DNA of 62,959 bases from Candidatus Saccharimonadota bacterium (GCA_036826295.1 DAISWO010000002.1:159294-222252), one strand, 5' to 3'. Numbered from the stretch's first letter, positions 12,468 to 40,108 are shown. Notes: generated from the letters alone by a model not told the origin. Translations and numbers: made by a program.

Positions 12468-12551
12468 CCAATTAGCTTTTGCTGGTCAAGTGGCGTAGCA
12501 TTATCACTAATATGATAGTGGTAATGCTAAATTGTTGTATTTTTATACAGG

Positions 12552-13139
12552 TTGGAATCAATAGTGACTAAACGGCAAAAGAAAAAACTAATTCAACTTA
12601 TCGTAGGTAGTTTGTTGCTCCTCGGATCATTTTTATACTCAAAGTACCAACCCGTTGCGCAAGCGCCGGTTACTCAGGCAGGTTACTATAATGTTTCTAG
12701 GTTTGATGATGGAGACACTATTGTTGTAGACATGAACGGCGTGGACGAAAAAATCCGTTTTATTGGCGTAGACACGCCAGAGACCCACGACCCGAGAAAA
12801 CCAGTGCAGTGTTTTGGAAAAGCAGCATCCGAGTTTACAAAAAACTTAATTGGAAACAATCCTGTACGCCTAGAATCAGACCCAACTAACACCAATCGAG
12901 ACAGGTACAACAGGCTACTTCGCTATGTGTACTTACCGGACGGAACACTTGTTAACCTCGAGATAATCAAACAAGGATACGGGTTTGCATATCTTAGCTT
13001 TCCAGTCCAAAAAGCCGAAGAGTTTAGATTGGCGCAAAAAACTGCTCGAGAGAACGAAAAAGGCCTTTGGTCAGCTTGTGATCCAGAAAAAAATGAATAT
13101 GGTGGATTCTCGTCACCGCCCGAGAAAACTAATCTATAA
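12552..13139 (+). CDS. thermonuclease (SNase-like), N-terminally anchored
   Basis: DDGDTI, IRFIGVDTPE, DRYNRLLRYV, LVNLEIIKQG. Confidence 0.92.
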   Translation: MESIVTKRQKKKLIQLIVGSLLLLGSFLYSKYQPVAQAPVTQAGYYNVSRFDDGDTIVVDMNGVDEKIRFIGVDTPETHDPRKPVQCFGKAASEFTKNLIGNNPVRLESDPTNTNRDRYNRLLRYVYLPDGTLVNLEIIKQGYGFAYLSFPVQKAEEFRLAQKTARENEKGLWSACDPEKNEYGGFSSPPEKTNL

Positions 13140-16376: not shown

Positions 16377-16451
16377 TCCCGGGTAGCTCAATGGTGGAGC
16401 AAGAAGCTGTTAACTTCGAGGTTGCCGGTTCGAGTCCGGCCCCGGGAGCCA
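16377..16451 (+). tRNA. tRNA-Asn(GTT)
   Basis: TCCCGGG/CCCGGGA acceptor stem, D-loop TAGCTCAATGGT, anticodon loop CT-GTT-AA, GGTTCGAGTCC T-arm, encoded CCA. Confidence 0.96.
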
Positions 16452-16748
16452 ATTTTGTGAAAGAGTGCTTTCAACGAGTACCGAGAAAGGTTTCAACAGA
16501 TTGAGTTGAAGCCTTTTTTCGTTGATTTGGCAGTTCGCAAGTAGAGCCTTCAAGATTTTGTTCTTTTGGGCAGGTTGCGAACTTTGGAAGATACTGCGGG
16601 CGTTTTGGGCTAGTTCTAACAGATGTGTAGCGGTCAAAATGAAACTTTTGTCATTGTTAGTGTATTCAACGAGCCTATACTCTAATTCTTCCTTTTCTGC
16701 TTTATATTTAGTTACGTATTTGTCATAGTCAGGCGTAGTAATACGCAA
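16410..16748 (-). pseudogene. C-terminal remnant of a large serine recombinase, reading antisense into tRNA-Asn
   Basis: Helical C-terminal region ending WLPGPDSNRQPRS; in-frame TAA directly upstream, so no catalytic domain. Confidence 0.75.
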
Positions 16749-16765
16749 TTATAACCGACGAACTA

Positions 16766-17035
16766 TTGGGTAAAATAAAGCCGTCCGCAATAGTCGTTGA
16801 TATTATTGAATTGAAGAACAAAGACAAGGTTATTGAAATGGTCAAAGATGGCAAACTATTTGGCTATGGCTTTGAAGCAGAGCCTAAAACCTTCGCAGAA
16901 TACGAAGGTAATATCTGGTCAGCACCTGCCTATGCGTGGGTAACTGACGGTTCAATGAACAACTCTATGACTAAATTGGTTGAAAATATGGTCAACGCCG
17001 TTAGTGGCAATTTCCCAAATAGGGTCAACCTGTAA
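16766..17035 (+). pseudogene. probable 5'-truncated gene fragment
   Basis: TTG start with no SD; open frame begins at 16742, back-to-back with the recombinase remnant. Confidence 0.4.
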
Positions 17036-17043
17036 ACCAACAC

Positions 17044-17277
17044 TTATAAACCAGTAAAAAAGTCCGCAACGCTAACATCTAACTGCTTTGCCAATACGAA
17101 CAAGGTAGAAAGTTTTGGGCTTCTGCGACCCTGTTCAATATAGCCAATAGAAACTCTGTCCAAGTCTGACAGATACGCAAGTTTTTCTTGCGAGTAACCT
17201 TTGGCTTCACGAAGTTCTTGTATCCTGCGACCAAGTTTTATAGTGAAGGCGTCAAATGCTTTATTAGTGTATGCCAT
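17044..17277 (-). CDS. XRE-family HTH regulator (controller C-protein-like)
   Basis: LGRRIQELREAKGYSQEKLA...IGYIEQGRRSP. Confidence 0.9.
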   Translation of the reverse strand: MAYTNKAFDAFTIKLGRRIQELREAKGYSQEKLAYLSDLDRVSIGYIEQGRRSPKLSTLFVLAKQLDVSVADFFTGL

Positions 17278-17314
17278 CGTACTCTATTTTCGTTGTCAAA
17301 AGTGCCAAACACTA

Positions 17315-17389
17315 CTAACAGAGAGTTAGCAAAACTACTTATAATTTGTTATATTTGATAACAGATGGTTTGCTAACAATGTGTTAGCA
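17315..17389. promoter_or_regulatory. repeated palindromic operators between XRE gene and mod
   Basis: CTAAC-N5-GTTAG at 17315-29 and 17373-87; degenerate ATAAC-N5-GTTTG at 17358-72 directly adjacent to the second. Confidence 0.65.
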
Positions 17390-17410
17390 CATATAAGGAA
17401 GTAACAACAA

Positions 17411-19114
17411 ATGGCACAAAAAGGCAGATATACTGAATTACCGAACAAAATTGGCTTGTATAGCACTAGCAAAGGCAGTTTTATAAAGAACGACAATGAC
17501 GTTGTTTTGAGCTTTCCGTTCAAGGACGCCGTATTAGAAGCGGGTATGAGCAAGGAAGATGTGGGGCGTGATGAACGCTTTTTACATCAGGAACTAGACA
17601 GCAAGGACATTGACACACTTGAAGAACCAAAGGTGCTTACTGACTTTCGCTATGTAGGTAAGGACGGCGAAAGACCGCTAACTGCGAGTAGCGATGTTGA
17701 GTTCTTTGACGAAGACGGTAGCCTACAACAAAACCTGCTTATCAAGGGCAACAACTTGCTGGCACTATACACTTTGCGTGAGAAGTTAGCAGGTAAGGTA
17801 AAGTTCATCTACATTGACCCGCCTTACAACACACGCACAGACGCCAATACTTTTGCCTACAACAATAATTTCAATCATAGTTCGTGGCTTACCTTTATGC
17901 GTAACAGGCTGGAAGTTGCCAAAGAGTTGCTTACCGAAGACGGTGTGATTTTCATAGACATTGACCATTACGAATTGTTTTATCTTGGCGTCTTGGCTGA
18001 TGAGATTTTTGGCTATGAAAATAGGCTTGGCGTACTTGCTGTTGTCCATAACCTAAAGGGCAGATACAACGAGTTCTTTTCGCCTGCACACGAAAACAAA
18101 ATTGTATATGCCAAAAATGCCCAATACGCTAAAATCAAAGACTTCAATTTTGACAATTCAAGTAGTTACCCGCACGAAGATGAAATAAGCCGATACAAGA
18201 GCATACCATTACAGCGTAGTGGCGATGGCTCACGGCGAGCAGACCGACCAAACCTCTTTTACCCTGTTTATTACAACCTTGATACAAAAGAGGTGTCTAT
18301 AACGAAACCTGAAAACGGTGTTGAAATGCTACCGATTGACAGCAACGGTATTGAGCGAAGATGGCGTTGGGGTAGAGATACGCTGATGGAAAAATGGAAA
18401 ACCGAAACAGAAGTAAGACAAGTCAATGGCGAATACAAGATATACACCAAACTTCGCATAAAAGGCGAGCGACCAAAATCACTTTGGTTCAGACCCGAAT
18501 ACTCTGGCACAACTGGAACTGGCGACTTGAAAGATTTGATGGGCGACAAAGTTTTTAGTTACCCGAAGTCAGTAGCTATGGTCAAAGACAGCATACAAAT
18601 CAGCACAGAGCCTAACGACATTGTGCTGGACTTCTTTGGCGGTTCAGGCACTACCGCACAGGCTGTTATGGCTCAAAATGCCGAAGATGGCGGTAACCGC
18701 AAGTTTATCTTGGTTGAGCAAATGAACTATGTGAACAATGTTACTTTCAAGCGTTTAGAAAACGCCATCAAGAAGTATTACAGCGACACATCGTTTGTTT
18801 ACTTTGAGTTGAAGAAATACAACCAAGAGTACCTTGACGCCATTATGGAAGCCACAAGTATAAAGGAACTGGAAGAATTGTATGTTGATATGCGTAACAA
18901 TGCTTTCTTGAAGTTTTGGTTTGACCGTGCCGAGTTTGAAAAAGACGAAAACTTCCGAAGCAAAGATTTAGAAGGTCGCAAACAAGCACTTGCTGACATA
19001 CTAGACGAGAACCAACTTTACCTAAACTACGCCGATATGAACGATACACGTCATACAGTGTCGTCAGACGAGAAGGCACTAACGGACAAGTTCTATGGCG
19101 AAGACGAAAACTAA
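17411..19114 (+). CDS. type III R-M methyltransferase (Mod)
   Basis: NLLIKGNNL, IYIDPPY, DFFGGSGTT. Confidence 0.9.
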   Translation: MAQKGRYTELPNKIGLYSTSKGSFIKNDNDVVLSFPFKDAVLEAGMSKEDVGRDERFLHQELDSKDIDTLEEPKVLTDFRYVGKDGERPLTASSDVEFFDEDGSLQQNLLIKGNNLLALYTLREKLAGKVKFIYIDPPYNTRTDANTFAYNNNFNHSSWLTFMRNRLEVAKELLTEDGVIFIDIDHYELFYLGVLADEIFGYENRLGVLAVVHNLKGRYNEFFSPAHENKIVYAKNAQYAKIKDFNFDNSSSYPHEDEISRYKSIPLQRSGDGSRRADRPNLFYPVYYNLDTKEVSITKPENGVEMLPIDSNGIERRWRWGRDTLMEKWKTETEVRQVNGEYKIYTKLRIKGERPKSLWFRPEYSGTTGTGDLKDLMGDKVFSYPKSVAMVKDSIQISTEPNDIVLDFFGGSGTTAQAVMAQNAEDGGNRKFILVEQMNYVNNVTFKRLENAIKKYYSDTSFVYFELKKYNQEYLDAIMEATSIKELEELYVDMRNNAFLKFWFDRAEFEKDENFRSKDLEGRKQALADILDENQLYLNYADMNDTRHTVSSDEKALTDKFYGEDEN

Positions 19115-21923
19115 AATAAATGCCACGCTCAATGACTTTCTGTTCAACCAAATAGAAAACGACCCTGCCTACATAGCGTGGCAAGCCGACTTTACTATTC
19201 CCGAATACGTTACCGACAATTTGAGTAAGACCCTGCGTGAATACCAAGTGATAGCCTTGAAGCACTTTATTTGGCTATATGAAACCGATAGAGCCAGAGC
19301 CAAGCACTTATTGTTCAATATGGCGACAGGTACAGGTAAAACGCTTGTAATGGCGTCTGTGGTGCTTTACCTGTATGCACAAGGCTATCGTAATTTCTTG
19401 TTTCTGGTTCATCAAATACAAATCAAAGACCAAGCACTAAAGAACTTTACCGATTATAAGTTTGAGAAGTACCTGTTCAATCCAAAAGGCGTAAGAATAA
19501 ACGGACGTAATGTAGCGGTCAAAGAAACAAAGAGCATAGCAGACGCAGACCGCAACGCTATAAACTTTATGTTTTTCAGCACCTCACTACTGTATAACCG
19601 ACTGCTTGAAGATAAAGAAAACGGACTTACAGCCCAAGATTTTGCCGACAATGATGTAGTGGTAATTGCCGATGAAGCCCATAGGCTCAACGTAGATACC
19701 AGAAGCAAAAAGAAAGCCGATATTGAAGAAGTACGAAACTGGGAAACTGCCGTTATGTCAGCAGTCAAAGCTCGTGAAGGAAACCTGCTACTTGAATATA
19801 CGGCAACTGTTGATTTAGCCAACCAAGCAATTCACGAAAAATACAAAGAAAAGTTAGTCCATCGCTACGACTTTTTAGAGTTCAACCGTGATGGGTATAG
19901 CAAGGACGTAAAGTTCTTATACAACAAAGAGGTTCATACCGAAGACCAAAAGCGTCTACTTATCATAAACGCCGTTGCTTTGAGCGAATATCGTAGGCTA
20001 CTTGCCGAGCGAGAGATGAAGGTAGATATGAAACCGATTGTACTTATAAAGTCAGTCAAAATTGCACAAAGCGAAGAAGACCGTGCGTTCTTTGACGCTG
20101 TTATTTCTAGCCTACGACCAGACGACTTGAACCGCTTGAAGGAACTTGCCAAGCAAAACATCAACCACGAACACGAAATACTGAACGATATGTTTGTGTG
20201 GCTAAAAGAGGCAAAAAACGGCTTTGTAACACAGGGCGACTGGGAAGGCTTGAATAAGTTTGTCAGCGAAATACGAGCCAGTTTTGCCCACGATAATACG
20301 CTCATATACAACAGCCAAAAGAAGGAAAAAGCCGAACTGTTGCCTTTGCTAGATAGCCCACGCAATACAATTCGTGCCATATTCAGTGTAAATGCCTTGA
20401 ACGAAGGTTGGGACGTATTGAGCCTATACGACATTATTCACTTTGATATTAGTGAAAGTAAAAAAGTTAGCCTTCAAGATATTCAGTTGATTGGTCGTGG
20501 TGCTAGGTATTTCCCTTATGAACTGCCACGCTCATACAAGCCAGATGATGACAGCAATAAACTATCACTTGATTTTGCCCAACGCAATTTGGAGTTTGAT
20601 ATAGACCGCCGAAAGTTTGATAATGCACCTTTTGAGCGTGGTCGTGTGCTGGAAACTTTTGTTTATCACTTCGTAAAGACTGGTATGTTCCTAGAAAACT
20701 TACAGCGTGATTTGCTTGGCGAAGGCATTATCAACGAAGGTGTTGAGCAAAAGACCATTACGCTAAAGACAAAGTTCCTTGAAAGTGAAACCTACAAAAA
20801 AGGCTTTGTATTGGTCAACCATACCATCAAGCGAACCAAGACAACCGAAGACGAGATTGACACTACTTTCAACCGCACTATCAAGGCAGGCTTGTATAAT
20901 CTACGAGCAAGAGGCTTATCTGACTATGAGCAAAATCAACAAATTGCGAGCCAGAAAACAAAAGTTATTCGTATTACCGATGAGTTTTTTGCCGAGCCTA
21001 TTATTCGCAAAGCATTGGTATCAGCCGAAGCCAACTTTTTCCGATACAACAATCTAGTTCATCACATACCCGACTTGAAGACGGTTGATGAACTGATAGA
21101 AAAGTACCTGCCGAAATACGAAATTACCTATACCTACGAAGACGGCAAAGATATTGGTCTACTGAACGCCCAAGAAAAACTACAACTACTTGTCGGTGCG
21201 ATACTGCCAGAAGTTCGCAGGCGTATAGACATTTATATGCCGAGAGAGGCAGGAAGTAACCAGTTTAGACCAGTATCGCTTTCCCAAGTGTTCGGCAAAG
21301 AAAAGAACATTTACTTGATGTCGTTCCCAAGTATTGACCTTACGACTGGCGAGAAAGTGTTCATAAGCACAGACGAGCGAGCCAAAGCTCAAAGCGACCA
21401 CGACAATCCTGATTTACAGTTCAATGTAAAAGGTGCTGATTGGTATGCGTATAGTGAAAACTATGGCACAAGCGAAGAAAAGAAGTTTGTAAAATACCTT
21501 GCAAGCCAGATTGACGACTTACACGCAAAATACAGTGGTTCGGAAGTATATCTAATTCGTAATGAACTAGACTACTGGCTATACAGTCTAAAAGATGGTC
21601 GTAGGTTCAGCCCAGACTATATGCTTATCATCAACGATGTAGTAAATCAGCAGTTGTATTACCAAGTCATTATTGAACCGAAGGGTGGACATATCATTGA
21701 ACAAGACGCTTGGAAGGAAGAAGCCTTGATAAGCCTGAACGATGACAGTGAAGTTGTGTTTGATACAAATGAAAACGACAAGCAGGCTTACAAAGAATAC
21801 TTGGCTGAAATGAGCAAGCACGGCTATAAAGAGATAAAGCCAATTGGCATAAAGTTCTATAACACTGACCCACGCCCCGAAAGCGAGTTTGCCCTAGATT
21901 TTGAGGCTAAATTGCTCGCCTAA
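19095..21923 (+). CDS. type III R-M restriction subunit (Res; SF2 helicase + nuclease)
   Basis: MATGTGKT, DEAH, EGWD, QLIGRGAR, C-terminal FSPDY...EPKG. Confidence 0.9.
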   Translation: MAKTKTKINATLNDFLFNQIENDPAYIAWQADFTIPEYVTDNLSKTLREYQVIALKHFIWLYETDRARAKHLLFNMATGTGKTLVMASVVLYLYAQGYRNFLFLVHQIQIKDQALKNFTDYKFEKYLFNPKGVRINGRNVAVKETKSIADADRNAINFMFFSTSLLYNRLLEDKENGLTAQDFADNDVVVIADEAHRLNVDTRSKKKADIEEVRNWETAVMSAVKAREGNLLLEYTATVDLANQAIHEKYKEKLVHRYDFLEFNRDGYSKDVKFLYNKEVHTEDQKRLLIINAVALSEYRRLLAEREMKVDMKPIVLIKSVKIAQSEEDRAFFDAVISSLRPDDLNRLKELAKQNINHEHEILNDMFVWLKEAKNGFVTQGDWEGLNKFVSEIRASFAHDNTLIYNSQKKEKAELLPLLDSPRNTIRAIFSVNALNEGWDVLSLYDIIHFDISESKKVSLQDIQLIGRGARYFPYELPRSYKPDDDSNKLSLDFAQRNLEFDIDRRKFDNAPFERGRVLETFVYHFVKTGMFLENLQRDLLGEGIINEGVEQKTITLKTKFLESETYKKGFVLVNHTIKRTKTTEDEIDTTFNRTIKAGLYNLRARGLSDYEQNQQIASQKTKVIRITDEFFAEPIIRKALVSAEANFFRYNNLVHHIPDLKTVDELIEKYLPKYEITYTYEDGKDIGLLNAQEKLQLLVGAILPEVRRRIDIYMPREAGSNQFRPVSLSQVFGKEKNIYLMSFPSIDLTTGEKVFISTDERAKAQSDHDNPDLQFNVKGADWYAYSENYGTSEEKKFVKYLASQIDDLHAKYSGSEVYLIRNELDYWLYSLKDGRRFSPDYMLIINDVVNQQLYYQVIIEPKGGHIIEQDAWKEEALISLNDDSEVVFDTNENDKQAYKEYLAEMSKHGYKEIKPIGIKFYNTDPRPESEFALDFEAKLLA

Positions 21924-21999
21924 AAAACGCTTGGCAAAATGACCCCCAAAAATTCGGCATTTCATATAGCGGAGTGTCAAACGGCGGAACAAAGGGCGA

Positions 22000-22911
22000 C
22001 TACCCCCCTATGTTACCTCTGTTGGTGGCGTAAGCGTAGTCTTTAGACCAACGCACAAGCAGTAAGTTACTCTGAATTATCATTTCATCGTTTGTTATAG
22101 CGTGTCGTTTCTGCTTTTTACCAGATTTTAGTGGGTCTATAAGTTCAATAAGTATTTCAGGGGTCAAAGCGAAGTAGTGTCGTCTTTGAGCTATATGGTT
22201 GCTGTACATTTTTTCAACCATTGTTTTTCCAGTATTGTTGAATACCTCAACTACTGGTGTATCAGTAGTGATGAACTTCTTTGAGCCTTTAGACAGATAG
22301 AACCGCCATTTCTTTATTACAAACCACCTATGAAACTCTTCGCAATTAGTGATGAGCTGTAAGTGATTGACGTTGTTATCAAAAGTCAGTTCGTATTCGC
22401 CACTTACAAATGTTTTTCTAGCGTCTTCAATTTGTTCATCGGTAACTTGATGTCCCTCTTCTTTCATAGCCTCTTTAGCACCGTCAGAAAAGTTCGGGTG
22501 TGAAGCCATTAGTGTAGTGATTTGTTTCATACCATCAGCCATAGTCTTGTTTATCTGTCTTCGCATATGTGGACTTCTAATCCAAAGTGAAGCCATAAAC
22601 CACGCTAAAATATCTAACTGCTGGTCTGTTAGTGGTTGGTAGTTCAATATTGCGTCAACGATGGCGTCATACTCTTTGGCAAACTTATCTTCAATTTCGC
22701 CAAAATACTGTTCAAATACTTGGCTTGTTTCATCTTCTTTACCAGTTTCAATAGCGTAGTAAAAGTCGGCATAACAAACACCACTATAAGGTCGGGCTTT
22801 TATGAGTTTGCCTTTTTGAATATCTAAAGTCTGCAACATATTATCAACAGCAAACCTTTTGAAATAAAAGCGTGGTGCGAAGTGCTGTTTCTTTGTTATC
22901 TGCTTTGTCAT
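22000..22911 (-). CDS. DUF4238-like protein
   Basis: N-terminal QHFAPRFYFKRF; FITTDTPV; YFALTPEILI. Confidence 0.7.
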   Translation of the reverse strand: MTKQITKKQHFAPRFYFKRFAVDNMLQTLDIQKGKLIKARPYSGVCYADFYYAIETGKEDETSQVFEQYFGEIEDKFAKEYDAIVDAILNYQPLTDQQLDILAWFMASLWIRSPHMRRQINKTMADGMKQITTLMASHPNFSDGAKEAMKEEGHQVTDEQIEDARKTFVSGEYELTFDNNVNHLQLITNCEEFHRWFVIKKWRFYLSKGSKKFITTDTPVVEVFNNTGKTMVEKMYSNHIAQRRHYFALTPEILIELIDPLKSGKKQKRHAITNDEMIIQSNLLLVRWSKDYAYATNRGNIGG

Positions 22912-23275
22912 ATTTCTATTTTACAGCCGTATGGGTATGTGCTGAAACATATGGTCTTTGCCAACAATTATTCCCAACAACGCTACCACTGTTAGCACGT
23001 TGGAGTTGTTGGGCTATTTCGGAAAACAAACGATTTTTTTATAGCGACACATTTTTAGGTAGTATGTGCGTTTACGAGTTTTCTAAAATATCAAGGGTCA
23101 AGGCATAGGGGGGGCTATGCCACGCTAAGTAGTAGTCCCTTGATGTTACGAACTTCGCTTTTGTCGTAGTCCATACTAGCCGTTCGCAGTTCGTTTGCCA
23201 GTGCGAGCCAAGCATAAGCGGAATGGATAACAGAGGCGAGAGGCCTCTTTTTCTTGTTTGAGGTATACTTAAAAC

Positions 23276-23974
23276 ATGAAATCCGTAAATATCTCGTGTA
23301 TTGGTTATGAAATAGCTGCTGATTGGTACGAAGGGAGTGATTGTGTATTGCTAGTTCTACCTGGCTTTACATCAAGCAAGGCAAACTACAAAGACCTGAC
23401 TGCGGCAATCATCAGTAAAACTGGAACTTCAGCACTTGTCATCGACTATTCTGGCCACGGCGAAAGCCCGTTCGATGTTCAAGACATCACCATCATGGAG
23501 AACTTCTCTGAAGTTGTAAGAGCCTATGACTGGCTCAAGAAGCATTATCCAGATAAAGCAATTAACGTTATGGGAACAAGTTACGGCGGCTTTTTTGCAG
23601 CTATGCTTGCTGGTGTGCGTGACGTAAATAAACTAGTCTTAAGAGTACCGGCGAACTACGCCCCAAAAGACCTGTATACGCCGTGGCGAGAGCTTGACAG
23701 GGAACAAATCAGAAATGAATACAGGGCCGACCCAAACAACTTCAAAGAACATCCCGTGCTTGCACATGGACAAAGTTTTAAGGGTACAGCCTACGTTTTA
23801 ACACACGAGTTGGATGAGGCCTGCCCAAAGAGCAGCACCGACCCGTATATTAAGGTGTTTGGTGCAGAAGCATGGGAAGCCAAAGGATTTGTGCATGGGC
23901 TAGCTAAAAGTAAGTTTACTCAGGCTCAGCTTGAAGAGTATCAAGATAAGATTGCTGGGTGGCTAAACAAATGA
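23276..23974 (+). CDS. alpha/beta-fold hydrolase
   Basis: LPGFTS, DYSGHGES, GTSYGG nucleophile elbow, Asp and His (FVHG). Confidence 0.85.
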   Translation: MKSVNISCIGYEIAADWYEGSDCVLLVLPGFTSSKANYKDLTAAIISKTGTSALVIDYSGHGESPFDVQDITIMENFSEVVRAYDWLKKHYPDKAINVMGTSYGGFFAAMLAGVRDVNKLVLRVPANYAPKDLYTPWRELDREQIRNEYRADPNNFKEHPVLAHGQSFKGTAYVLTHELDEACPKSSTDPYIKVFGAEAWEAKGFVHGLAKSKFTQAQLEEYQDKIAGWLNK

Positions 23975-24633
23975 AATTTGTCCTATGCTCCGAAGGGTTT
24001 AGTACACCAAACACCGTAGAAGCATGTACCAAGCTTGTAGGCAAGCCAAAAGGAGAAATAAGTATTGGCATCATTAACGAAGCCTTCGCCGTGGAGCATG
24101 GTGATAAACGGTGGGTACTCCATAACTTACAATGCGTCTTTGATAACTTCAGTGGTGAAGTGGACATCGTTAATCTATTGGCTTTATCTATTGAGGAAGT
24201 GGAAGCCAGATTAGTTAACAAGGATGTCATCTTTGTGGTCGGTGGGGATACCGACTATCTGATGGGCGTTTACGAAAAGACTGGCTTCGACAAACTACTG
24301 CCAAAGCTACTAGAAACCAAGGTCTATGTCGGTAGCAGCGCTGGCTCAATGGTGGTCGGCAGGCGCATATCAGCTGCTGCATATAGACTTATCTACGGTG
24401 AGGATAGCAAGTGGGGTATCGATGCCTACCTTGGGCTTGCCGACCTATCTGTCATGCCTCATCTTGACTCACCTGATTTTCCGAACCGTAAAGATACTCT
24501 GCTTGAAGCCGTAGGGGAGTTTGAAGTTAAAGTCTATGGCCTGCGTGATGGCAGCGCCGTGGTTATAGATGGCAACAGCGTCACCACCATTGGAAGTGAG
24601 CCACTTATTATTGAGAAAGGTAAAGTGATATGA
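23971..24633 (+). CDS. peptidase S51 (PepE-like, class I glutamine amidotransferase fold)
   Basis: VGGDT, GSSAG nucleophile, MPH; ATGA overlap with the hydrolase stop. Confidence 0.85.
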   Translation: MKFVLCSEGFSTPNTVEACTKLVGKPKGEISIGIINEAFAVEHGDKRWVLHNLQCVFDNFSGEVDIVNLLALSIEEVEARLVNKDVIFVVGGDTDYLMGVYEKTGFDKLLPKLLETKVYVGSSAGSMVVGRRISAAAYRLIYGEDSKWGIDAYLGLADLSVMPHLDSPDFPNRKDTLLEAVGEFEVKVYGLRDGSAVVIDGNSVTTIGSEPLIIEKGKVI

Positions 24634-25154
24634 GCAAACTTGCTATTGCAATCACCGGACCATCTGGAGCGGGTAAAAGCACCGTTACCGACAAAATCAT
24701 CCGACAACGTGAAAAATGTGCTCGTATTGATACAGATGACATAAAGCAGTTCCTGTTCAGCGCTTTCCGCAAAGACAGCCAGCAAGATGGTTCAACTCTC
24801 TGGACATTTGAAGATTGGGATACATTAGGTAATAGCACTGGCATTCTGGCTAAAGGCTTCCTGGACGCTGGCTATGACGTAATAATCGATGGGCATATCG
24901 ATGATACCGCCTGGAAACTTATAGAGAAGCATGTAACTCTTACACATAAGTTCCTATTGCTGCCGCATGTTGACGTCACAAAGGCTAGGGATAAAGAGCG
25001 TTCTGGCGATACTGTCATGGGCGATGAAGCAGTTACCAATTCTCATAACTACTTTGTGACTAATTACTACTATAAAGACTTCGTTACGCTAGATACCACC
25101 GACCACAGTATTGATGAGACCGTTAAGACAATTCAGGAACAGCTAGACAGCTAA
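24630..25154 (+). CDS. small P-loop kinase (nucleotide-kinase-like)
   Basis: GPSGAGKST, IDTDD, VIIDG, lid Arg (ARDKER). Confidence 0.75.
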   Translation: MSKLAIAITGPSGAGKSTVTDKIIRQREKCARIDTDDIKQFLFSAFRKDSQQDGSTLWTFEDWDTLGNSTGILAKGFLDAGYDVIIDGHIDDTAWKLIEKHVTLTHKFLLLPHVDVTKARDKERSGDTVMGDEAVTNSHNYFVTNYYYKDFVTLDTTDHSIDETVKTIQEQLDS

Positions 25155-25246
25155 GCTTATAGATTGTGCCGACTCAGCAATATCTCGAGCTAACCTCATA
25201 ATCTGAGAGTAATACTTGGTACGAAGTACGTCAGCTAGTGGGAGCC

Positions 25247-25277
25247 ATCCTTCATAGCTATGAAGGATTTTTTCTTT
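25247..25277 (+). terminator. intrinsic terminator after attR (displaced tRNA-Asn terminator)
   Basis: Palindrome ATCCTTCATAGCTATGAAGGAT followed by a T tract. Confidence 0.8.
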
Positions 25278-25470
25278 GAGGGGTATGGCTCGAACCTTGG
25301 TCGTAAATAGCCTGATGGCTGTTTACGTTTTACTTACTAGTCTGTATGCGCGTTGGCTACGCCAACTAGTCGCTAACAGAAAATGAACAGTCCGACCCCA
25401 GAAAATTCAATATATTAATGAAGTTTGTTAATTAATTGTCTTAGAGCATGATTATCGAATCAAATTACTA

Positions 25471-25710
25471 TTAACCAAGCCCTGCGGGGCCCATCAAATC
25501 CTCCATAGTTAGTGGGGTGCTCCGCGCCTCGGTATTATGATGTAGATAACTATCAATCACAGGCTGCAACATCAGTTGCATGCGATTAACCCTTTCTACT
25601 AGCTCCTCCTTTAACGCTTCATCTGGAATCTGGTCAGTTATTCTACTGAGCTCAACAAGTTCCTGAGTGTATGCACCTGTTGAAAATTCTGGTAATTCTT
25701 CTACTCCCAT
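25471..25710 (-). CDS. small hypothetical protein
   Basis: 79-aa ORF with SD-like AAGGAG upstream. Confidence 0.5.
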   Translation of the reverse strand: MGVEELPEFSTGAYTQELVELSRITDQIPDEALKEELVERVNRMQLMLQPVIDSYLHHNTEARSTPLTMEDLMGPAGLG

Positions 25711-25820
25711 ACTGCTCCTTTCAAGGATTAATAGTCATAACTATGTATCAAGTTTTCAATTATAAATTCTCTAGGTCATATTATACCTAAACCTAGTTAA
25801 TTTTCTTATTTTTTAATTGA

Positions 25821-26450
25821 TTAGGATTTTTTGTTTGCAACTACATAAAGCCGTTCGATATCCAAATACCCGGTACTCTCAATAATCGTATCTAAAACAA
25901 AATTTGCATCTCTAATTTGCTCGGCTAAACTGTCAGGTTGCCACAAGCAGAAATAACGTTCTTCATCTAGTTTGTCTGATGTCCAGTATTCGCCATCTCC
26001 ACGCCGTACACAAAATCCTAAAGTGCCGTCTTCATTAGTTGCTCCATGAACTTTATTCAATATGCCCTCAAATTGCTGCCTAGTAAAATGCTCAAAGACT
26101 GCATCGGCAAAGATAAGGTCATATTTTCCAGGAAATGGGTCCGTTAGCGCGTTAAAATACTGAGCCTTAAGACCTCTACTAGCCAGTTCACCCAAGAATC
26201 CCGGTGCTCCATCGGAGCACTGTACAGTTAGACCTCTAGATTCCATGTACTGAGCATCCCGTCCAAAACCACTTCCGATTTCAAATATATCGCTGTCAGC
26301 ATTTACCTTATCGATTAAAAGATCAAGCCATAGCTTTGTATCGCCAATAGTATCCTTCGGTGTAAGTTCTATAAATTTATCAACATTTCTTTCGTACGCA
26401 CCGAGCGTTCTTTCGTTAGGATCCATTTCGATACAATAATACTTATCCAC
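25821..26450 (-). CDS. class I SAM-dependent methyltransferase
   Basis: FEIGSGFGRDA, SDGA, YDLIFADAVFEH. Confidence 0.85.
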   Translation of the reverse strand: MDKYYCIEMDPNERTLGAYERNVDKFIELTPKDTIGDTKLWLDLLIDKVNADSDIFEIGSGFGRDAQYMESRGLTVQCSDGAPGFLGELASRGLKAQYFNALTDPFPGKYDLIFADAVFEHFTRQQFEGILNKVHGATNEDGTLGFCVRRGDGEYWTSDKLDEERYFCLWQPDSLAEQIRDANFVLDTIIESTGYLDIERLYVVANKKS

Positions 26451-26490
26451 ATATTAGTCAAACCTTAGACCGATATGTATAATTAGGCTA

Positions 26491-27123
26491 ATGTCTGGTT
26501 CAATCATCCTCTCCGGCGGTGGAGATAGTAAACAAGCGTCTGATATCAACAGGTTTCTTTACGATCAAATGAAATCTAAAACTTCATTGAGCTCGCTGTA
26601 TATACCACTCGCGCTAAAAGAAGATTATTTTGATAGTGCAGAGCAATGGTTCCGAAGTGAACACCCGTACTTGGAAAAGATCACAGTTGTTAGAAATAAA
26701 CAAGATGCTGAAAAGGCAATGAAAAAACACTATGCTTTGATATATATAGGAGGCGGCAACACAGGCAAGTTACTCTATCAACTAAAGGAGTACTCATTAG
26801 ATCAATACATAATCACTCAACTAAGTAGTGGTACTATTATTTACGGCGGTAGTGCGGGAGCGATTGTACTCGGTAAAACAATTACCACTGCCCCCGAAAA
26901 AGAATATGAGAAAGATAAAGATAATAGGGGTTTAAATCTTTTGGGGAATTACTCAATAATACCGCATTTTGAAAGCAAATTTAGTAAACATCATTTTAAC
27001 GAAGCAAAGAAGTATGGAACAAAGTTGCTAGGAATAAGTGAAAGTTCTGGTGTAATTTTTAAGGGAGGAAAGATAGTTTCTGAGGTTAATAAAAAAGGAA
27101 TCAATAAATTTATTAATTACTAG
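26491..27123 (+). CDS. peptidase S51 (PepE-like)
   Basis: IGGGNT, YGGSAG, IIPHF. Confidence 0.85.
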   Translation: MSGSIILSGGGDSKQASDINRFLYDQMKSKTSLSSLYIPLALKEDYFDSAEQWFRSEHPYLEKITVVRNKQDAEKAMKKHYALIYIGGGNTGKLLYQLKEYSLDQYIITQLSSGTIIYGGSAGAIVLGKTITTAPEKEYEKDKDNRGLNLLGNYSIIPHFESKFSKHHFNEAKKYGTKLLGISESSGVIFKGGKIVSEVNKKGINKFINY

Positions 27124-28130
27124 CCTTCTAATTGTAATGAGTAACGCTTAGCAAATAATTCGGGGTCTTCTGAAAGATTCATTTTGGCTTTTGATTTAGT
27201 GCCACTTATGCGTAGATTGTTTAAGTTTATATTGCGCCAAATTTCACTCCTCACAGTCTCTACCGTCACTCCGTTTGAAGTGATCACGCCACCCATCCGA
27301 CTCCAAAATTGATAGGTAGAGTCATCGTGTGCTAAAGCATCTAAATACAGCTCTGATTCAGGGCTAGATACTGGCAAAAGCTTAGCTAATCTTCTTAACT
27401 GATAACCCTGATTGTTATTAGAGGGTATTACTTTATTAGACGCAATTAAGACTGCCCCGCGAAATGCATCTACGCTCACTACATTATCGTCATCTATTGC
27501 GGGAATACCAGTTGTTTCTTGTAGAAAATGAGGCGAACAGCCAAACAATAAGCGCTCCAAGCCCCCACCCATTTCAGACATGGTCATACTTGATCCATCT
27601 GATAGTCGAATATCGTGGAATAACGAATCGCCGACGTCTAAGTCGTCTATTAAATAATTCTCTTGAAGAGTGGTATATTCTAGACCATCACGTAAATATG
27701 TCTCTTCTTGTCGCTCATGTCTTTCAACGTTCTTTCCCGAAACAGAGGACAATAAATCTGCGAACTCCTCTCTTGCAACATTATGATCTGGCAACGATGT
27801 ATTTAATTGCATAGAGCCGAAATTGATAAAACTGGTATACGAACCGAGCTTGACTCCTGGGAGATAGTTCATCCTAACGACTGGTTGTGAAATAACATAT
27901 GACTTATCAGTGGGCTGGAGGTCTCCAAAGATAAATTGATTCATGTATTGGATGCCCGAAGAAGTGAATAAAGTAGAGTCTCCGTCATTACGGATCAAAG
28001 GCAAGGGCTCAACATACTCGGTCTCCGGATATATACCAGCAAGACTTAGCAAAACACCACAATAGTCATCACTGAACGAGTAACAGCTAATCCTGTCTTG
28101 TAAAGCGATAAACTCTTCTTTATTATCCAT
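27120..28130 (-). CDS. truncated alanyl-tRNA synthetase-like protein (catalytic + helical domain only)
   Basis: DSTLFTSSGIQ, SQPVVR, YTSF, EMGGGLERL (motif 3), DAFRGAVLIASNKVIPSNNNQGYQLRRL; ends at 336 aa without editing or C-Ala domains. Confidence 0.8.
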   Translation of the reverse strand: MDNKEEFIALQDRISCYSFSDDYCGVLLSLAGIYPETEYVEPLPLIRNDGDSTLFTSSGIQYMNQFIFGDLQPTDKSYVISQPVVRMNYLPGVKLGSYTSFINFGSMQLNTSLPDHNVAREEFADLLSSVSGKNVERHERQEETYLRDGLEYTTLQENYLIDDLDVGDSLFHDIRLSDGSSMTMSEMGGGLERLLFGCSPHFLQETTGIPAIDDDNVVSVDAFRGAVLIASNKVIPSNNNQGYQLRRLAKLLPVSSPESELYLDALAHDDSTYQFWSRMGGVITSNGVTVETVRSEIWRNINLNNLRISGTKSKAKMNLSEDPELFAKRYSLQLEG

Positions 28131-28132
28131 AA

Positions 28133-28771
28133 TTAGCTTCTTATAGTCCTAGTATTACTCTCATTTATAGCATTTAACTCACCCGAGCCGTTGAAAATCA
28201 ATCCAGAGTCTTCGCTTAACGCAATGATCCCGATGTGATAGGCCTGTGCGAGAGTGTCCAAAGATCGATCTTCTTCTTCGGTCCCTAGATAATGTGGCCT
28301 GAAACTCCAACCATCACAAAGATCTAAACCATCATGCTGTAACGACATAAATACTTCTGGATAACGCAATACTTCTCTTGAGGAGACTAATGATTTACCA
28401 AGTACAACGCCACCTGCGCTACCACCATAAAGAACACCGCCACCTTGTAAAAACGAGCTAAGATAACCATTGTCTATGCCTAATTCGAGAAGATTGTCTC
28501 GCAACCTGTGGCAATAACCACCGCCCATGTAAATTGAGTCATAATCTCCGTCAATATCATCTTTTGTTTGCAGTAGTTTGGCTGAACTAAAAAATTTGTA
28601 AGCGCCCAAAAACCACTCGAACGCGCTGGCGTGCCTTGAAGACTCCATAGCATGGGGGATATACAAACAAGAAGAATTATAGCTACTATCAAGAACTAAC
28701 TTCTCGTATTCAGCATCTAGTAGGGCAGAGCTTTCTTTATCGCCTCCACCTCCAATGATAATACTGCCCAT
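28133..28771 (-). CDS. peptidase S51 (PepE-like)
   Basis: MGGGY, YGGSAG, FRPHY. Confidence 0.8.
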   Translation of the reverse strand: MGSIIIGGGGDKESSALLDAEYEKLVLDSSYNSSCLYIPHAMESSRHASAFEWFLGAYKFFSSAKLLQTKDDIDGDYDSIYMGGGYCHRLRDNLLELGIDNGYLSSFLQGGGVLYGGSAGGVVLGKSLVSSREVLRYPEVFMSLQHDGLDLCDGWSFRPHYLGTEEEDRSLDTLAQAYHIGIIALSEDSGLIFNGSGELNAINESNTRTIRS

Positions 28772-28775
28772 TATA

Positions 28776-30047
28776 CTATTCCGATATTTTCTTAAACTTC
28801 GTATAGTCTTGCAGAACTTCAGGTATGTCTACCGAACCATCAGGATTTTGACAGTTCTCTAAGATACAAGCCATAGTCCTACCAACAGCTACGGCAGTAC
28901 CATTTAGTGTGTGTACAAATTCTCTTTTACCAGTCACAGGGTCCTTGAACTTCATACCCATCCTTCGTGCCTGAAAGCTACCGGTATTACTGACGCTAGA
29001 TACTTCTAAATAACGATTCTGACTGGGCAACCACACTTCTAGATCTCTTGTCGATAAGGCAGCGATACCTAAGTCCCCAGTACAAAGTTCTATTGTTCTA
29101 GATGGTAACTTCAGAGCTTCGAGAACAAACTTTGCTTCATCTATCATTTCATAGTAACTCTCCCAAGAATTCTCGGGATGTGCAATTCTAACAAGCTCAA
29201 TTTTTGGAAACTGGTGATTCCTAATCAAACCCTTAGTATCCTGACCAGCTTTGCCTGCCTCTCTGCGAAAATTCTCAGAGTATCCTGTTAACTTGTAAGG
29301 TAGTTCGTCTGGAGTAAATATTTTATCCCGCAATAAGTTTGTTAGTGGGACTTCTGTCGTAGGAATTAGATACAATACATTTCCTTTGTTATCGGTAGTA
29401 GTAAACATGTCATCCTCAAACTTAGGCAACTGACCAGTACCCTGCATGATTTCTGGTCTGACTAAATACGGCACTTCAACTTCTTCGTAGCCGTTACCTG
29501 TAGATTGATCTAGCATAAAGTTAACTAAAGCTCTCTTTAGAAGCGCACCTTTATTTCTCAGAACAGAAAACTTAGTGCCCGATAAGTTTGCGGCATTTTT
29601 ATTATCAATAATGCCCAGCCTAGTACCTAGAGTTAGGTGATCAACCGTCCAACTTTCGGTACGAGGTTCGCCATGAGTTGAAATGACTTCATTATCTTCT
29701 TCACTCTCGCCTATTGGAACATGTTCAGCCGAAACATTAGGCATACTCAGCATGCGCTGATGAAACGAAGGTTCAATATCTGCCAAACTTTCCTCTAGCT
29801 CACTCATTCGAATCTCGACAGAACCAAGTACCCGCCTTAGGAGTGCCTGTTCAGCCTCTGATGAATCTCTAAACTGGGCTGATATTTGATTCTTGTCTGC
29901 TCTCAATGAATCTTGCTCGGACTGCAATGTATGTATTTGTTGGTAGATTGATTGATCAGTTTCGGTCAGACTAAAACCTCTATGATCCAACGCTTCAACG
30001 GAAGCAGGGAACTGTTCTTCAGAAAATAAAACTCGCAAATCATGCAT
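28776..30047 (-). CDS. serS: seryl-tRNA synthetase (possibly an accessory copy)
   Basis: N-terminal coiled-coil arm, GTGQLPKF, LIPTTEVP, FRREAG, GLIRNHQF, HTLNGTAVAVGR. Confidence 0.93.
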   Translation of the reverse strand: MHDLRVLFSEEQFPASVEALDHRGFSLTETDQSIYQQIHTLQSEQDSLRADKNQISAQFRDSSEAEQALLRRVLGSVEIRMSELEESLADIEPSFHQRMLSMPNVSAEHVPIGESEEDNEVISTHGEPRTESWTVDHLTLGTRLGIIDNKNAANLSGTKFSVLRNKGALLKRALVNFMLDQSTGNGYEEVEVPYLVRPEIMQGTGQLPKFEDDMFTTTDNKGNVLYLIPTTEVPLTNLLRDKIFTPDELPYKLTGYSENFRREAGKAGQDTKGLIRNHQFPKIELVRIAHPENSWESYYEMIDEAKFVLEALKLPSRTIELCTGDLGIAALSTRDLEVWLPSQNRYLEVSSVSNTGSFQARRMGMKFKDPVTGKREFVHTLNGTAVAVGRTMACILENCQNPDGSVDIPEVLQDYTKFKKISE

Positions 30048-30119
30048 ATTAAATATTATACAATATCAAAAATGTTTTACAAGTATACTTAGATACTAGC
30101 TACTTTCAACAATCTATTC

Positions 30120-31382
30120 TTAAGAAATTACTAACTCAGTATCCGCAGAAACCAGACTATCAGTAATTTCTGGGATTTCATTCAAGCAAGATGACGCAAA
30201 GGCTACTATTTCTTCTTGATTGACATCTGAAGTTTCTGAAATTTTCACAACTGTCTTCCATGGGCTAATCAATGCACGACCACTGTTACTAACTAAATAT
30301 ACCTCGTTTTGTAATCCATCAAACTTATCATATATCTTTCTAGCGATCTGGTGAGCTGCGATGTAATATAGCTTTCCAATATGATAAACAGGGTTCTTGC
30401 CACTTGCCCCTTCCATGCTCATTGGACTGTTTATAGAGATGATTTGGTTTACTCTATTTCCTCTACCAACCAGACCTTCATCGCCACTTTCGATTGAAGA
30501 TCCAGTAGCAGTCAAATAAAGCTCTTGTTTCTGAAAATCATCTCTGGTATTCAAATTAAACTTAAGCTCTTTGCCTAGGTGTTTTCTGGAGTGATCAGTT
30601 AAGTATTTTTGAGTGGTTAATAAATTGTTTTTATATTCGTCTAGAGATGCTACAAATCTCGACACTTGAGGTACACACAAAGTAACTTCAATATTCCCAT
30701 CTATTTCTGAGCCCATTATCTTTACATCTGTCCCGACCCACTTATATTTTTTCTTAAATTCATTAATTGTAATATCTTTTTCTAGTTTCAGGACATATGA
30801 TTCTATTCTTTTTAATGGATAGTAGCCACAGCCTATTGATGTATCATTCGCGAATAAACTTTTTATCTCAGGTAGGTCATTTAGATTTCTAGGCCTGAAC
30901 CAAAAATTCCTATTACCGCCATTTTTTTCATTATCTTCTGAATGGCCAGGGCTGCTGGCTGTGCTGATATTAAATATAATCGATACCATATCTGGCGGAA
31001 TTAAGTCACCGAATCTAATTTTTATGAACTCAAGGGTGGCACTTCTCAATAGTTCTTCATAAGGTATCGTATCATCGCCAAACTGGTCTGAAATTCGACC
31101 GTTAATTAGAACACGGATAGGGCTGATCATCTCACCGCTTCCGAAATCCACTATTGATTTACCGCCCAAAATACCTAACTTGTCGAAATTATGGTGCAGG
31201 ATAGCACCGAATTTGTCTAAGGTGTAACGAGAGTAAGAAGCGCTCAAAAATTCAGCTAAATTATCTGCCAACGTATCCGGGTGGCCAATGCCCTTACGCT
31301 CAACAAACACAACTTTCGGATCCTCAAATCTAGTTTTTATTATTTGTACATCCGAAGGCGAATTGTTTATTATTTTTACCAT
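30120..31382 (-). CDS. archaeal-type S-adenosylmethionine synthetase (MAT)
   Basis: [51 protein letters not shown]. Confidence 0.9.
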
Positions 31383-38887: not shown

Positions 38888-40108
38888 ATGAAAATAAGCA
38901 CCGACAAACAAGCAATTGATGAAATTACTTCTCGCTCTATCGCTGAGGTATACCCCTCAAAGCAAGCGTTAGCTGAGAAATTAGCAGAGGGAAAGCAACT
39001 CACTTTCTACGTGGGTATTGACCCTACGGCAGATTATGTTCACTTAGGGCATTCTACAAACTACTTACTACTAGAGCGTCTCCACAAATTGGGCCATAAA
39101 ATTATAGTCTTAGTTGGCGATTTTACGGCGATGATCGGCGACCCTAGTGACAAAACTTCTATGAGGACGCCGTTAACTGAAGAAGATGTTAAGGCAAACC
39201 TGAAAACTTTTAAAAACCAAATCGGGAAAATACTAGATTTTGAGAGTAGAGAAAATCCAATAGAATTCAAGTTTAATTCACAGTGGCTTTCACCGCTAAC
39301 ATTCAAAGATAGTGTAGAACTTGCGTCAAACTTCACCGTACAACAGATGTTAGAGCGCGACGCGTTTGAGAAACGGATTAAACAACAAAAACCTCTGTTC
39401 GTGCATGAATTTTTCTACCCGTTAATGCAAGGTTACGATTCTGTTGCGATGGATGTCGACGGTGAAATTGGCGGGACCGACCAAACTTTTAACATGCTTG
39501 CTGGACGAACACTACTTAAAAGGTACAAGAATAAAGAGAAGTTTGTTATAACAACCACATTACTCGAAAATCCTGAGACTGGTGAAAAGATGATGAGCAA
39601 AAGTCTCGGCACGGGTATAGGCCTCAACGAAGCACCAAAAGAAATGTTCATTAAAACCATGCAACTGCCTGATGCTGGCATCCTACAAACTTTTATTGAC
39701 TGCACTCGTCTTAGTATGGACAGGATTGAAGATATAAAGAAGCGTTTGGCATCGGATGAAAATCCACGAGACATAAAAATGATTCTCGCCCGTGAAATCG
39801 TAATGATGTATCACGGCGAAGAGGCTGCAGAGCTAGCCGAGAAGCAATGGGTATCTGAGATTAGCAACAAAGAGCTAGCGAGTGATATTAAGACTATCGA
39901 ATTTGATTCGGACACTGATCTAATCGAAAAGATTGTCGAACTAGGTGTAGTCGATAGTAAGAGTAAAGCCCGACGTTTAATAACGGAAGGCGCTGTTAAA
40001 ATTAACGATAAAAAAGTCTCTATGGATAGCTATAACGATTTGATTACAAAAAAATCCATACTATCTATTGGCAAGAAGCATAAATTCAAAATAAACTTCA
40101 AAGATTAA
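38888..40108 (+). CDS. tyrS: tyrosyl-tRNA synthetase
   Basis: GIDPT..HLGH, LMQGYD, GGTDQ, MMSKS, C-terminal S4 domain. Confidence 0.97.
   Translation: MKISTDKQAIDEITSRSIAEVYPSKQALAEKLAEGKQLTFYVGIDPTADYVHLGHSTNYLLLERLHKLGHKIIVLVGDFTAMIGDPSDKTSMRTPLTEEDVKANLKTFKNQIGKILDFESRENPIEFKFNSQWLSPLTFKDSVELASNFTVQQMLERDAFEKRIKQQKPLFVHEFFYPLMQGYDSVAMDVDGEIGGTDQTFNMLAGRTLLKRYKNKEKFVITTTLLENPETGEKMMSKSLGTGIGLNEAPKEMFIKTMQLPDAGILQTFIDCTRLSMDRIEDIKKRLASDENPRDIKMILAREIVMMYHGEEAAELAEKQWVSEISNKELASDIKTIEFDSDTDLIEKIVELGVVDSKSKARRLITEGAVKINDKKVSMDSYNDLITKKSILSIGKKHKFKINFKD

Follow-up and report, generated by a model that had tools for sequence, protein, structure and literature searches.

Conserved linkage of a methionine adenosyltransferase, a truncated AlaRS-like enzyme and S51 hydrolases in a Candidatus Saccharimonadota locus, and a proposed aminoacylation pathway

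The mycothiol pathway comprises Ino1, the GT4 glycosyltransferase MshA, the PIG-L protein MshB and the CysRS-like ligase MshC, and the bacillithiol pathway (BshA/BshB/BshC) is related to it. MshC provides a precedent for a ligase derived from an aminoacyl-tRNA synthetase (aaRS), as presented in PMC9736012. In the ascamycin trio of Streptomyces sp. 80H647, AcmD is a full aaRS, AcmF a truncated transferase and AcmE an aminoacyl-removing hydrolase; AcmF is AlaRS-like, uses Ala-tRNA as donor and is reported to have lost most ATP-binding residues, though it keeps the motif-2 Arg, and at the alpha-amino-binding position it has E in place of D (PMC12945691). Here we analysed a block of six genes (positions 25821-31382) in a 62,959-nt stretch of DNA from a Candidatus Saccharimonadota bacterium (GCA_036826295.1, DAISWO010000002.1:159294-222252), the whole of which is referred to as the window. 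A preliminary description, made from the sequence of the window, had regarded the block as an aaRS-centred cluster and had invoked aaRS paralogues of natural-product clusters, a precedent for which ascamycin now supplies a characterised case (PMC12945691). Comparison with relatives revealed a different centre: the conserved core consists of methionine adenosyltransferase (MAT), the AlaRS-like enzyme and an S51 hydrolase, and SerRS is a later addition in the lineage of the window.

The six-gene block and its conserved core

The six open reading frames (ORFs) of the preliminary description were all found in the ORF list and by profile searches, and encode the following products (SAM, S-adenosylmethionine; MTase, methyltransferase):

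25821-26450, minus strand: class I SAM-dependent MTase, 209 aa, with matches to Methyltransf_11/12/23/25 (Pfam)
26491-27123, plus strand: S51 serine hydrolase, designated S51b; Peptidase_S51 (PF03575), 93.4 bits
27120-28130, minus strand: truncated AlaRS-like enzyme, 336 aa; tRNA-synt_2c at 20.9 bits, which is sub-threshold, the fold being taken from a model
28133-28771, minus strand: S51 serine hydrolase, designated S51a; PF03575, 50.3 bits
28776-30047, minus strand: SerRS, canonical bacterial type; TIGR00414, 443.7 bits
30120-31382, minus strand: archaeal-type MAT (SAM synthetase), the first gene of the unit; PF01941, 336 bits

As calculated from the coordinates, SerRS and S51a are separated by 4 nt and S51a and the AlaRS-like gene by 2 nt, S51b is convergent with the AlaRS-like gene and overlaps its stop by 4 nt, and the MTase gene is divergent from S51b with a 40-nt spacer, in agreement with the layout described before. 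Promoter and terminator scans of the block gave nothing exceeding chance, and an Rfam search of the window identified two tRNAs only, with no riboswitch or T-box 5′ of MAT or serS.

Only six close relatives of the AlaRS-like protein were present among 5.8 billion protein clusters, and all of these were situated in an identical six-gene order with differing flanks (L001-L009), this order being seen in L001-L010 with AlaRS-like proteins 51-56% identical. Five clusters were collinear with the window; two more distant ones were rearranged yet had SerRS, S51, the AlaRS-like gene and an adjoining archaeal-type MAT. Further loci (L011-L015) were reached via SerRS relatives at 59-69% identity. The order in L011 and L012 was SerRS-S51-AlaRS-like and then, on the opposite strand, S51, MAT and radical SAM, whereas that in L013 and L014 was S51 (minus), SerRS-S51-AlaRS-like, MAT (minus) and radical SAM (minus), with an adjoining glycosyltransferase (GT) gene, these two being the only loci with a GT beside the cluster within the flanks of the window's clade. 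The gene set of L015 was present without the MTase, which was kept at the same position in L001-L010. In L011 (13564-15923) and L013 (12994-15473), the adjoining MAT was of another archaeal type, 35-38% identical to the window MAT, and was paired with the radical SAM enzyme (weak SPASM/twitch-type matches), which replaced the class I MTase. The set recurred in every relative found, and the synteny across genomes proved stronger than the preliminary description had expected. Genes that stay linked despite inversion and reshuffling speak for a common function more strongly than genes in a merely conserved order. Scanning of GTDB with patterns specific for the window clade gave one species representative (JAUIBQ01), which is uninformative as to the family at large.

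A full HMMER profile search with the AlaRS-like family retrieved 315 representatives at 50% clustering with E <= 1e-3, 182 of them with E <= 1e-10; the members are mostly 330-420 aa long, and these short AlaRS-like proteins are a previously unnamed family. A metagenome scan seeded by a distant subgroup of 16 sequences (20-30% identical to the window protein) yielded 53 loci, in which ORFs were called and for which hidden Markov models (HMMs) were built, and de-replication at 80% left 39 groups outside the window clade; in the counts that follow, the denominators are the loci with enough flank for the gene concerned. An archaeal-type MAT gene was located at most 2.1 kb from the AlaRS-like gene in 31/33 distant loci and directly upstream in 28/33, usually within 20 nt, and an S51 gene abutted the AlaRS-like 3′ end in 28 of the 30 loci. 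The core was retained in about 90% of distant loci, with an AlaRS-like identity of only 20-30%. In the reverse test, all six sampled homologues of the window MAT (the three closest outside the clade and three from further down the list) were followed by AlaRS-like and S51 genes. The MAT gene is integral to the unit, which supports the earlier idea of its own SAM supply. Only two of the six were in named metagenome-assembled genomes (MAGs), one of Gracilibacteria and one of Chloroflexi; other named MAT relatives were from the Patescibacteria group, WWE3, Pacebacteria and Beckwithbacteria, and it is from the names of MAT relatives only that the assignment to Patescibacteria was made. The preliminary description had called such a pathway unexpected in a genome like those of the candidate phyla radiation (CPR); the module is instead typical of Patescibacteria-type genomes.

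Other genes frequently accompanied the core, namely those for a GT (16/22 distant loci), a PIG-L deacetylase (11/22) and inositol-3-phosphate synthase, Ino1 (10/25). The best model for Ino1, annotated as a myo-inositol-1-phosphate synthase, was mycothiol_INO1 (424 bits, NCBIfam), and those for the PIG-L partner were MshB, Mca and BshB; the GT partners were a GT4 glycosyltransferase weakly similar to BshA and a second, GT1-like protein. Class I MTases, a PHP phosphatase, an APH-like kinase and an amidohydrolase were occasional additions. Three types of gene fusion were also observed, joining AlaRS-like to S51 (P0213 and the L072 gene), AlaRS-like to GT1 (P0132, by Pfam; P0131 had the same GT1-like C-terminal half, by eye only) and S51 to a GT1-like protein (L066, judged from the clustering of ORFs and visual inspection). 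These fusions suggest that the AlaRS-like enzyme, S51 and GT act on one substrate, probably as a complex, and, together with the linkage kept in rearranged and distant loci, they support the earlier idea of a functional unit. The smallest arrangements were MAT-AlaRS-like-S51-MTase in the outgroup locus L070, the MTase of which is homologous to that of the window (216 bits to the clade HMM), and MAT with a fused AlaRS-like-S51 gene alone in L072; the former is probably similar to the ancestor of the arrangement in the window.

The fullest version of the operon was observed in a Gracilibacteria MAG (L073, JAQTLR01, 5546-13028), with SerRS-Ino1-MAT-AlaRS-like-S51-GT-PIG-L in one direction. Under table 11, in-frame stops broke the ORFs of this locus and the called MAT gene did not translate to the query, as might be expected from the alternative genetic code that Gracilibacteria use. 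It was also noticed that a GluRS-like paralogue (457 aa) and an MTase were located after S51 in L029 (11842-14025), a GlyRS with fused alpha and beta parts between the AlaRS-like and GT genes in L030 (11048-14104), and a ThrRS 2.8 kb upstream in L023 (2281-4056).

Enzymes encoded by the block

The AlaRS-like protein scored far below the models of canonical AlaRS (TIGR00344, 22.9 bits vs a cut-off of 457; Pfam PF01411 tRNA-synt_2c, 20.9 vs 30.3). Its AF2 model (56-sequence alignment, pLDDT 95.2) had the AlaRS fold, the top 25 Foldseek matches being all AlaRS (24 solved structures) with a probability of 1.00 and TMq of 0.49-0.67, and Bll0957 appeared among the weaker structural matches (ranks 46-47). 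The 336 residues comprise the aminoacylation domain and part of the tRNA-recognition domain, inside which the protein ends, and there are no editing and C-Ala domains; the protein is thus a truncated, non-canonical aaRS paralogue, as it had been taken to be. A PSNxxxGYxxR motif is strongly conserved in the retained tRNA-recognition part. The family profile matched archaeal AlaRS best (2ZTG, E 4.6e-20, vs 6.7e-14 for E. coli 3HXU), and some members had an apparent N-terminal Cys4 motif like that of archaeal AlaRS, as judged by eye; based on these two features, the enzyme looks archaeal in origin, as does MAT.

The motif-2 Arg (R86, aligned with E. coli R69) was present in 101/102 sequences and the motif-3 Arg (R193, in GLER) in 100/102, the rest being gaps. 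The Ala-pocket residues of E. coli AlaRS are W170, N212 and D235, numbered partly after PMC12945691. The alpha-amino-binding position (D235) was D or E in 100 of the 102 sequences, and the position corresponding to N212/T was D or E in 94, a family-specific acidic residue that could take a proton from a cationic acceptor or bind it. At the W170, N212/T and D235 positions, the window protein has R147, D168 and E186, and the wider family W, D/E and D, respectively; within the window clade, the W170 position was replaced (R in 11/15) and D235 was changed to E in 15/15. The change D186E was considered as a marker of tRNA dependence and rejected: in the wider family the E variant did not follow the adjacency of SerRS, the three SerRS-adjacent loci that were scored (L053, L065 and L067) having D.

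SerRS exceeded the serS equivalog cut-off (TIGR00414, 443.7 bits vs 301.65), is of full length with the N-terminal arm (Seryl_tRNA_N, 28.9 bits vs 28.2) and had Aquifex SerRS (2DQ3, E 4.5e-114) as the best solved match. Between L001 and L011, the identity was 58.5% for SerRS, 63.8% for PK and 63.3% for PGK, and between the window and L008/L009 it was 75% for SerRS and 60% for SmpB. On the side of the cluster, synteny extended to SmpB and tRNA-Asn in L009 and to tRNA-Asn in L005 and L015. As the divergence of SerRS is like that of PK, PGK and SmpB and the chromosomal synteny is conserved, vertical descent is indicated, and serS is probably the housekeeping copy of the lineage, drawn into the operon; an extra or resistance copy, as suggested earlier, appears less likely. 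TyrRS was tried as a control for vertical descent and abandoned as uninformative (27% identity between the window and L013) in favour of PK, PGK and SmpB. The TyrRS genes in question are at 38888-40108 of the window and 6346-7563 of L013, and their products were 27% identical, compared with 59% for SerRS; presumably the TyrRS of the two genomes are of different types. Outside the window clade, a full SerRS gene adjoined the operon in L053, L065 and L073, at differing positions, and a partial ORF with a SerRS match was located at the contig end in L067, at yet another position. The occurrence of SerRS beside the operon in four other loci, compared with a chance expectation roughly estimated at 0.4 loci, makes a link of the operon to the supply of serine or Ser-tRNA plausible.

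MAT exceeded the gathering score of PF01941 (336 bits) but had 316 bits with the NCBIfam MAT models, under the equivalog cut-off of 435. It matched solved archaeal MATs down to E 6e-66 and, in alignment with 7P82, kept the signature motifs ERKGxGHPD, [13 protein letters not shown] and [11 protein letters not shown], in line with its earlier identification as an archaeal-type SAM synthetase; its orthologues were at 47-63% identity. Both S51 proteins exceeded the Pfam cut-off of 23.9 (S51b 93.4, S51a 50.3), and the PepE equivalog was not reached (53 bits vs 156), their closest solved relatives being Lmo0363, a cyanophycinase-like exopeptidase and PepE. The triad columns, in S51b numbering, were conserved as S121 in 43/43, H159 in 43/43 and E184 in 41/43 sequences, and both window proteins keep Ser-His-Glu. 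In phmmer searches, S51b was more often than S51a the better match to the S51 following the AlaRS-like gene in distant loci. Regarding the two S51 genes of the window lineage, we propose that the second one arose there.

Proposed function and its alternatives

We assign a probability of roughly 50% to the reading that the block is a rearrangement, in the lineage of the window, of an uncharacterised and widespread Patescibacteria-type operon, in which the AlaRS-like enzyme puts a small amino acid on a non-tRNA acceptor. The enzyme would transfer an amino acid of the size of Ala, Ser or Gly to an amine or hydroxyl, and in most lineages the acceptor would be an inositol-linked glucosamine formed by the co-operonic Ino1, GT4 glycosyltransferase(s) and PIG-L, making the enzyme a functional analogue of MshC. 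S51 would act on the same conjugate, in release, proofreading or turnover, probably complexed with the ligase, and MAT would provide the SAM with which the product is methylated, in the window lineage by the adjoining MTase and in other lineages by different MTases or a radical SAM enzyme. In the window lineage, the donor may be serine, possibly as Ser-tRNA as in AcmF, and the acceptor a different one, as suggested by the changed pocket (W to R, D to E), the second S51 and the presence of serS in the operon. Of the earlier proposal, an uncharacterised pathway based on an aaRS paralogue with its own SAM supply is retained, whereas its framing as an antibiotic island is not; in place of a nucleotide or peptide product, the Ino1, GT and PIG-L genes of most lineages point to an inositol or aminosugar acceptor.

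Several observations weigh against this assignment of function. Homologues of Ino1, of the GTs GT_f1 and GT_f3 and of PIG-L were absent from the 63-kb window and from the flanks of L001-L012, L015 and L016, and every partner-family score was under the curated equivalog cut-offs. It is MAT, not an MTase, that is invariant, and no universally conserved SAM-user is evident in the core, so the role in supplying methylation may be wrong. The sequence of the AlaRS-like enzyme would fit either adenylation of the amino acid by the enzyme itself or an aminoacyl-tRNA donor. Literature searches for the operon or for combinations of AlaRS-like, S51 and MAT found no description.

The lack of an invariant SAM-consuming partner keeps alive the explanation that the AlaRS-like enzyme and S51 act on SAM itself or on a SAM-derived adenosyl compound by aminoacylation, or that the AlaRS-like protein is a HisZ-like, SAM-binding or regulatory partner of MAT, the adenylate pocket being re-used for the adenosyl-sulfonium. 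MAT is the most constant neighbour and its position, usually within 20 nt upstream, suggests translational coupling; the acidic residue replacing neutral N212/T would suit a cationic group at the adenylate-phosphate site, and the minimal versions are those of L070 and L072, described above. Fusions of the AlaRS-like protein were with GT and S51 but never with MAT, however, and the conserved catalytic arginines and alpha-amino-binding acid argue for amino-acid catalysis over pure regulation, so we consider this explanation unlikely. Rather improbable is the view, close to that of the preliminary description, that the block makes or detoxifies a Trojan-horse aminoacyl-nucleoside inhibiting an aaRS, with SerRS as an extra (resistant or supply) enzyme and the S51 proteins as activating or immunity peptidases. 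Its architecture recalls that of ascamycin, where AcmD serves for supply and self-resistance, AcmF for Ala-tRNA-dependent transfer onto adenosine sulfamate and AcmE as hydrolase; moreover, the window clade has the D-to-E change of AcmF at the alpha-amino binder, and the product of MAT, an adenosine derivative, could be a nucleoside scaffold. Against this, SerRS passed the serS equivalog and diverged like a housekeeping gene, the block is in conserved chromosomal synteny with SmpB and tRNA-Asn, the core spans very divergent Patescibacteria-type loci as a physiological pathway would, the usual partners are Ino1, GT and PIG-L with no nucleoside-tailoring enzymes, and both class II ATP-binding arginines are kept whereas AcmF is reported to be without most ATP-binding residues.

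A role in translation quality control, in which the AlaRS-like protein would charge or recognise tRNA (Ala/Ser/Gly confusion) and S51 would be a trans-deacylase, could account for the retained part of the AlaRS tRNA-recognition domain with its conserved motif and for the SerRS, GlyRS, ThrRS and GluRS-like genes that several lineages have within the operon or close to it. Nevertheless, Ino1, GT, PIG-L and the GT fusions have no role in tRNA metabolism, the AlaRS-like score is far under the AlaRS models (22.9 vs 457 bits), and the operon is not accompanied by a tRNA gene, the adjacency of tRNA-Asn being clade-specific, so such a role appears quite improbable. That the block is no functional unit at all, but housekeeping MAT and serS genes beside unrelated peptidase genes in a compact genome, can draw on the standard housekeeping nature of both enzymes and on promoter and terminator scans at chance level; it is contradicted by linkage maintained through rearrangement and at 20-30% identity (about 90% of distant loci) and by the three kinds of fusion, and is very improbable.

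Returning to aminoacylation of a non-tRNA acceptor as the preferred reading, we tentatively extend it to a broader proposal, which we hold to be possible though doubtful: that an undescribed glucosaminyl-inositol, aminoacylated and possibly also N-methylated, is widely made by Patescibacteria-type bacteria as either a mycothiol-like molecule or an envelope precursor, via an archaeal-AlaRS-derived enzyme complexed with S51 and GT and coupled to a dedicated MAT, and that the window lineage has been re-tooled for the transfer of serine, possibly from Ser-tRNA, to a different acceptor. The biosynthetic capacity of Patescibacteria (CPR) is regarded as minimal, and no function is known for most of the gene families conserved in them; the operon described here is compact and widespread, has a readable chemical logic and includes a new family of AlaRS-derived enzymes. 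If the proposal were true, a major metabolite of these organisms would be revealed, which might be a redox buffer, a compatible solute or an envelope building block, the presence of an archaeal-type SAM synthetase in these bacteria would have a possible explanation, and MshC and AcmF would be joined by a third aaRS scaffold recruited independently to acylate an aminosugar or nucleoside.

Chromosomal surroundings and comparison with known systems

The preliminary description had placed the block just beyond an attR at tRNA-Asn and had called it visibly AT-rich. Searches with the tRNA-Asn 3′ end (25 nt and 18 nt, up to 3 mismatches) found no second copy in the window, no direct repeats were found across 15-33 kb, and no integrase was present among the annotated ORFs of 16.4-25.8 kb, so that an attR is not supported. 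An integrated island at tRNA-Asn comprising the block was likewise rejected, since there was no att repeat and the six-gene block is syntenic with relatives. Comparison with L009, L008 and L015 revealed an insertion of about 9 kb (16743-25800) between tRNA-Asn and the cluster. It is plausible that an island ends directly ahead of the six genes, which are themselves outside the insertion and belong to the native chromosome. The GC content of the block was 39.2%, compared with 41.5% for the window, and 10% of equal-sized windows were as low or lower; within the block, only MAT (37.1%) and S51b (35.7%) were low-GC genes. The claim of AT-richness is therefore weak, and as a sign of foreign origin it was rejected, the composition being within the normal spread of the window. 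The features of this neighbourhood are as follows:

16377-16451: tRNA-Asn
17411-19114: type III restriction-modification mod, in the 9-kb insertion
19095-21923: type III restriction-modification res, in the insertion
22000-22911, minus strand: DUF4238 protein, in the insertion
23276-23974: alpha/beta hydrolase, first of an overlapping trio in the insertion
23959-24633: a third S51, middle of the trio
24630-25154: P-loop kinase with AAA_33/Zeta_toxin/CPT similarity, last of the trio

The stretch of about 290 nt 3′ of tRNA-Asn (16452-16742) had 70-76% DNA identity to L009, L008 and L015, exceeding that of the neighbouring coding genes, and could represent a small protein or RNA; an ORF at 16410-16748 (minus strand), which overlaps the tRNA-Asn 3′ end, had 71% amino acid identity to L009 3054-3317. 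In L005, a 34-nt partial tRNA-Asn (10548-10581; 94% to window 16400-16433) was located between the MTase gene and the full tRNA-Asn (11454-11528), and may be an integration scar at that tRNA in a relative. Elsewhere in the window, a prophage-like region (45952-60000) was found after tRNA-Ser (45952-46043), which includes the following genes:

46180-47478, minus strand: serine recombinase
48137-49696, minus strand: an unusual fusion of LexA DNA-binding domain, S24 peptidase and C5 cytosine methylase
49902-52022: PHP-domain protein
53649-55193, minus strand: large terminase
55594-56919, minus strand: ParB-N6 DNA methylase

Comparison with mycothiol synthesis revealed the same gene logic in most lineages, with the aaRS-derived enzyme placed to acylate the freed amine, and the similarities of the partners extend to BshA (weak) and BshB of the bacillithiol pathway. 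There are, however, several differences: the ligase here is derived from class II, archaeal-type AlaRS, whereas MshC is derived from class I CysRS and is thus an analogue and not a homologue; no MshD-type acetyltransferase is present; MAT and the S51 hydrolase are obligatory here and have no mycothiol counterpart; the pocket of the family is Ala-like, so that a thiol product is not implied; and in the window's own lineage there are no Ino1, GT and PIG-L nearby. As the partner scores are under the equivalog cut-offs, the operon resembles mycothiol and bacillithiol synthesis in logic but is not a member of those pathways.

The re-use of an aaRS core on a non-tRNA acceptor or modified base is shared with EpmA/PoxA, GluQ/YadB, AsnA and the SerRS-like amino acid:carrier-protein ligases such as Bll0957, but these are derived from LysRS, GluRS, AspRS and SerRS, and none is AlaRS-derived or linked to MAT, S51, Ino1 or PIG-L. 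With ErdS/ErdH, the operon has in common that an aminoacylating enzyme is encoded beside a hydrolase that reverses its reaction, a possible role for S51. The synthase and hydrolase of alanyl-phosphatidylglycerol are another such pair acting on an aminoacylated lipid. The synthases of these pairs, unlike the enzyme described here, are DUF2156/MprF-type proteins that transfer from aminoacyl-tRNA onto membrane lipids, and no such domain or membrane protein is encoded in the block.

Similar to AcmF, AcmD and AcmE, the block combines an enzyme of aminoacylation and tRNA-recognition domains only with a full-length aaRS and a hydrolase in the cluster, and the window clade shares with AcmF, as compared by the published description of the latter, the D-to-E change at the alpha-amino-binding residue. 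Although AcmF is reported to be without most ATP-binding residues, it has the motif-2 Arg; the AlaRS-like family keeps R86 and R193, and the window protein has D for N212 and E for D235. Furthermore, the partner aaRS here is a housekeeping-looking SerRS, the hydrolase is of the S51 type whereas AcmE is an alpha/beta hydrolase, and the context is very widespread and resembles primary metabolism, not an actinomycete antibiotic cluster. Of the closest characterised systems, AcmF/AcmD/AcmE may thus include a homologue of the AlaRS-like family, and mycothiol synthesis an analogue, MshC.

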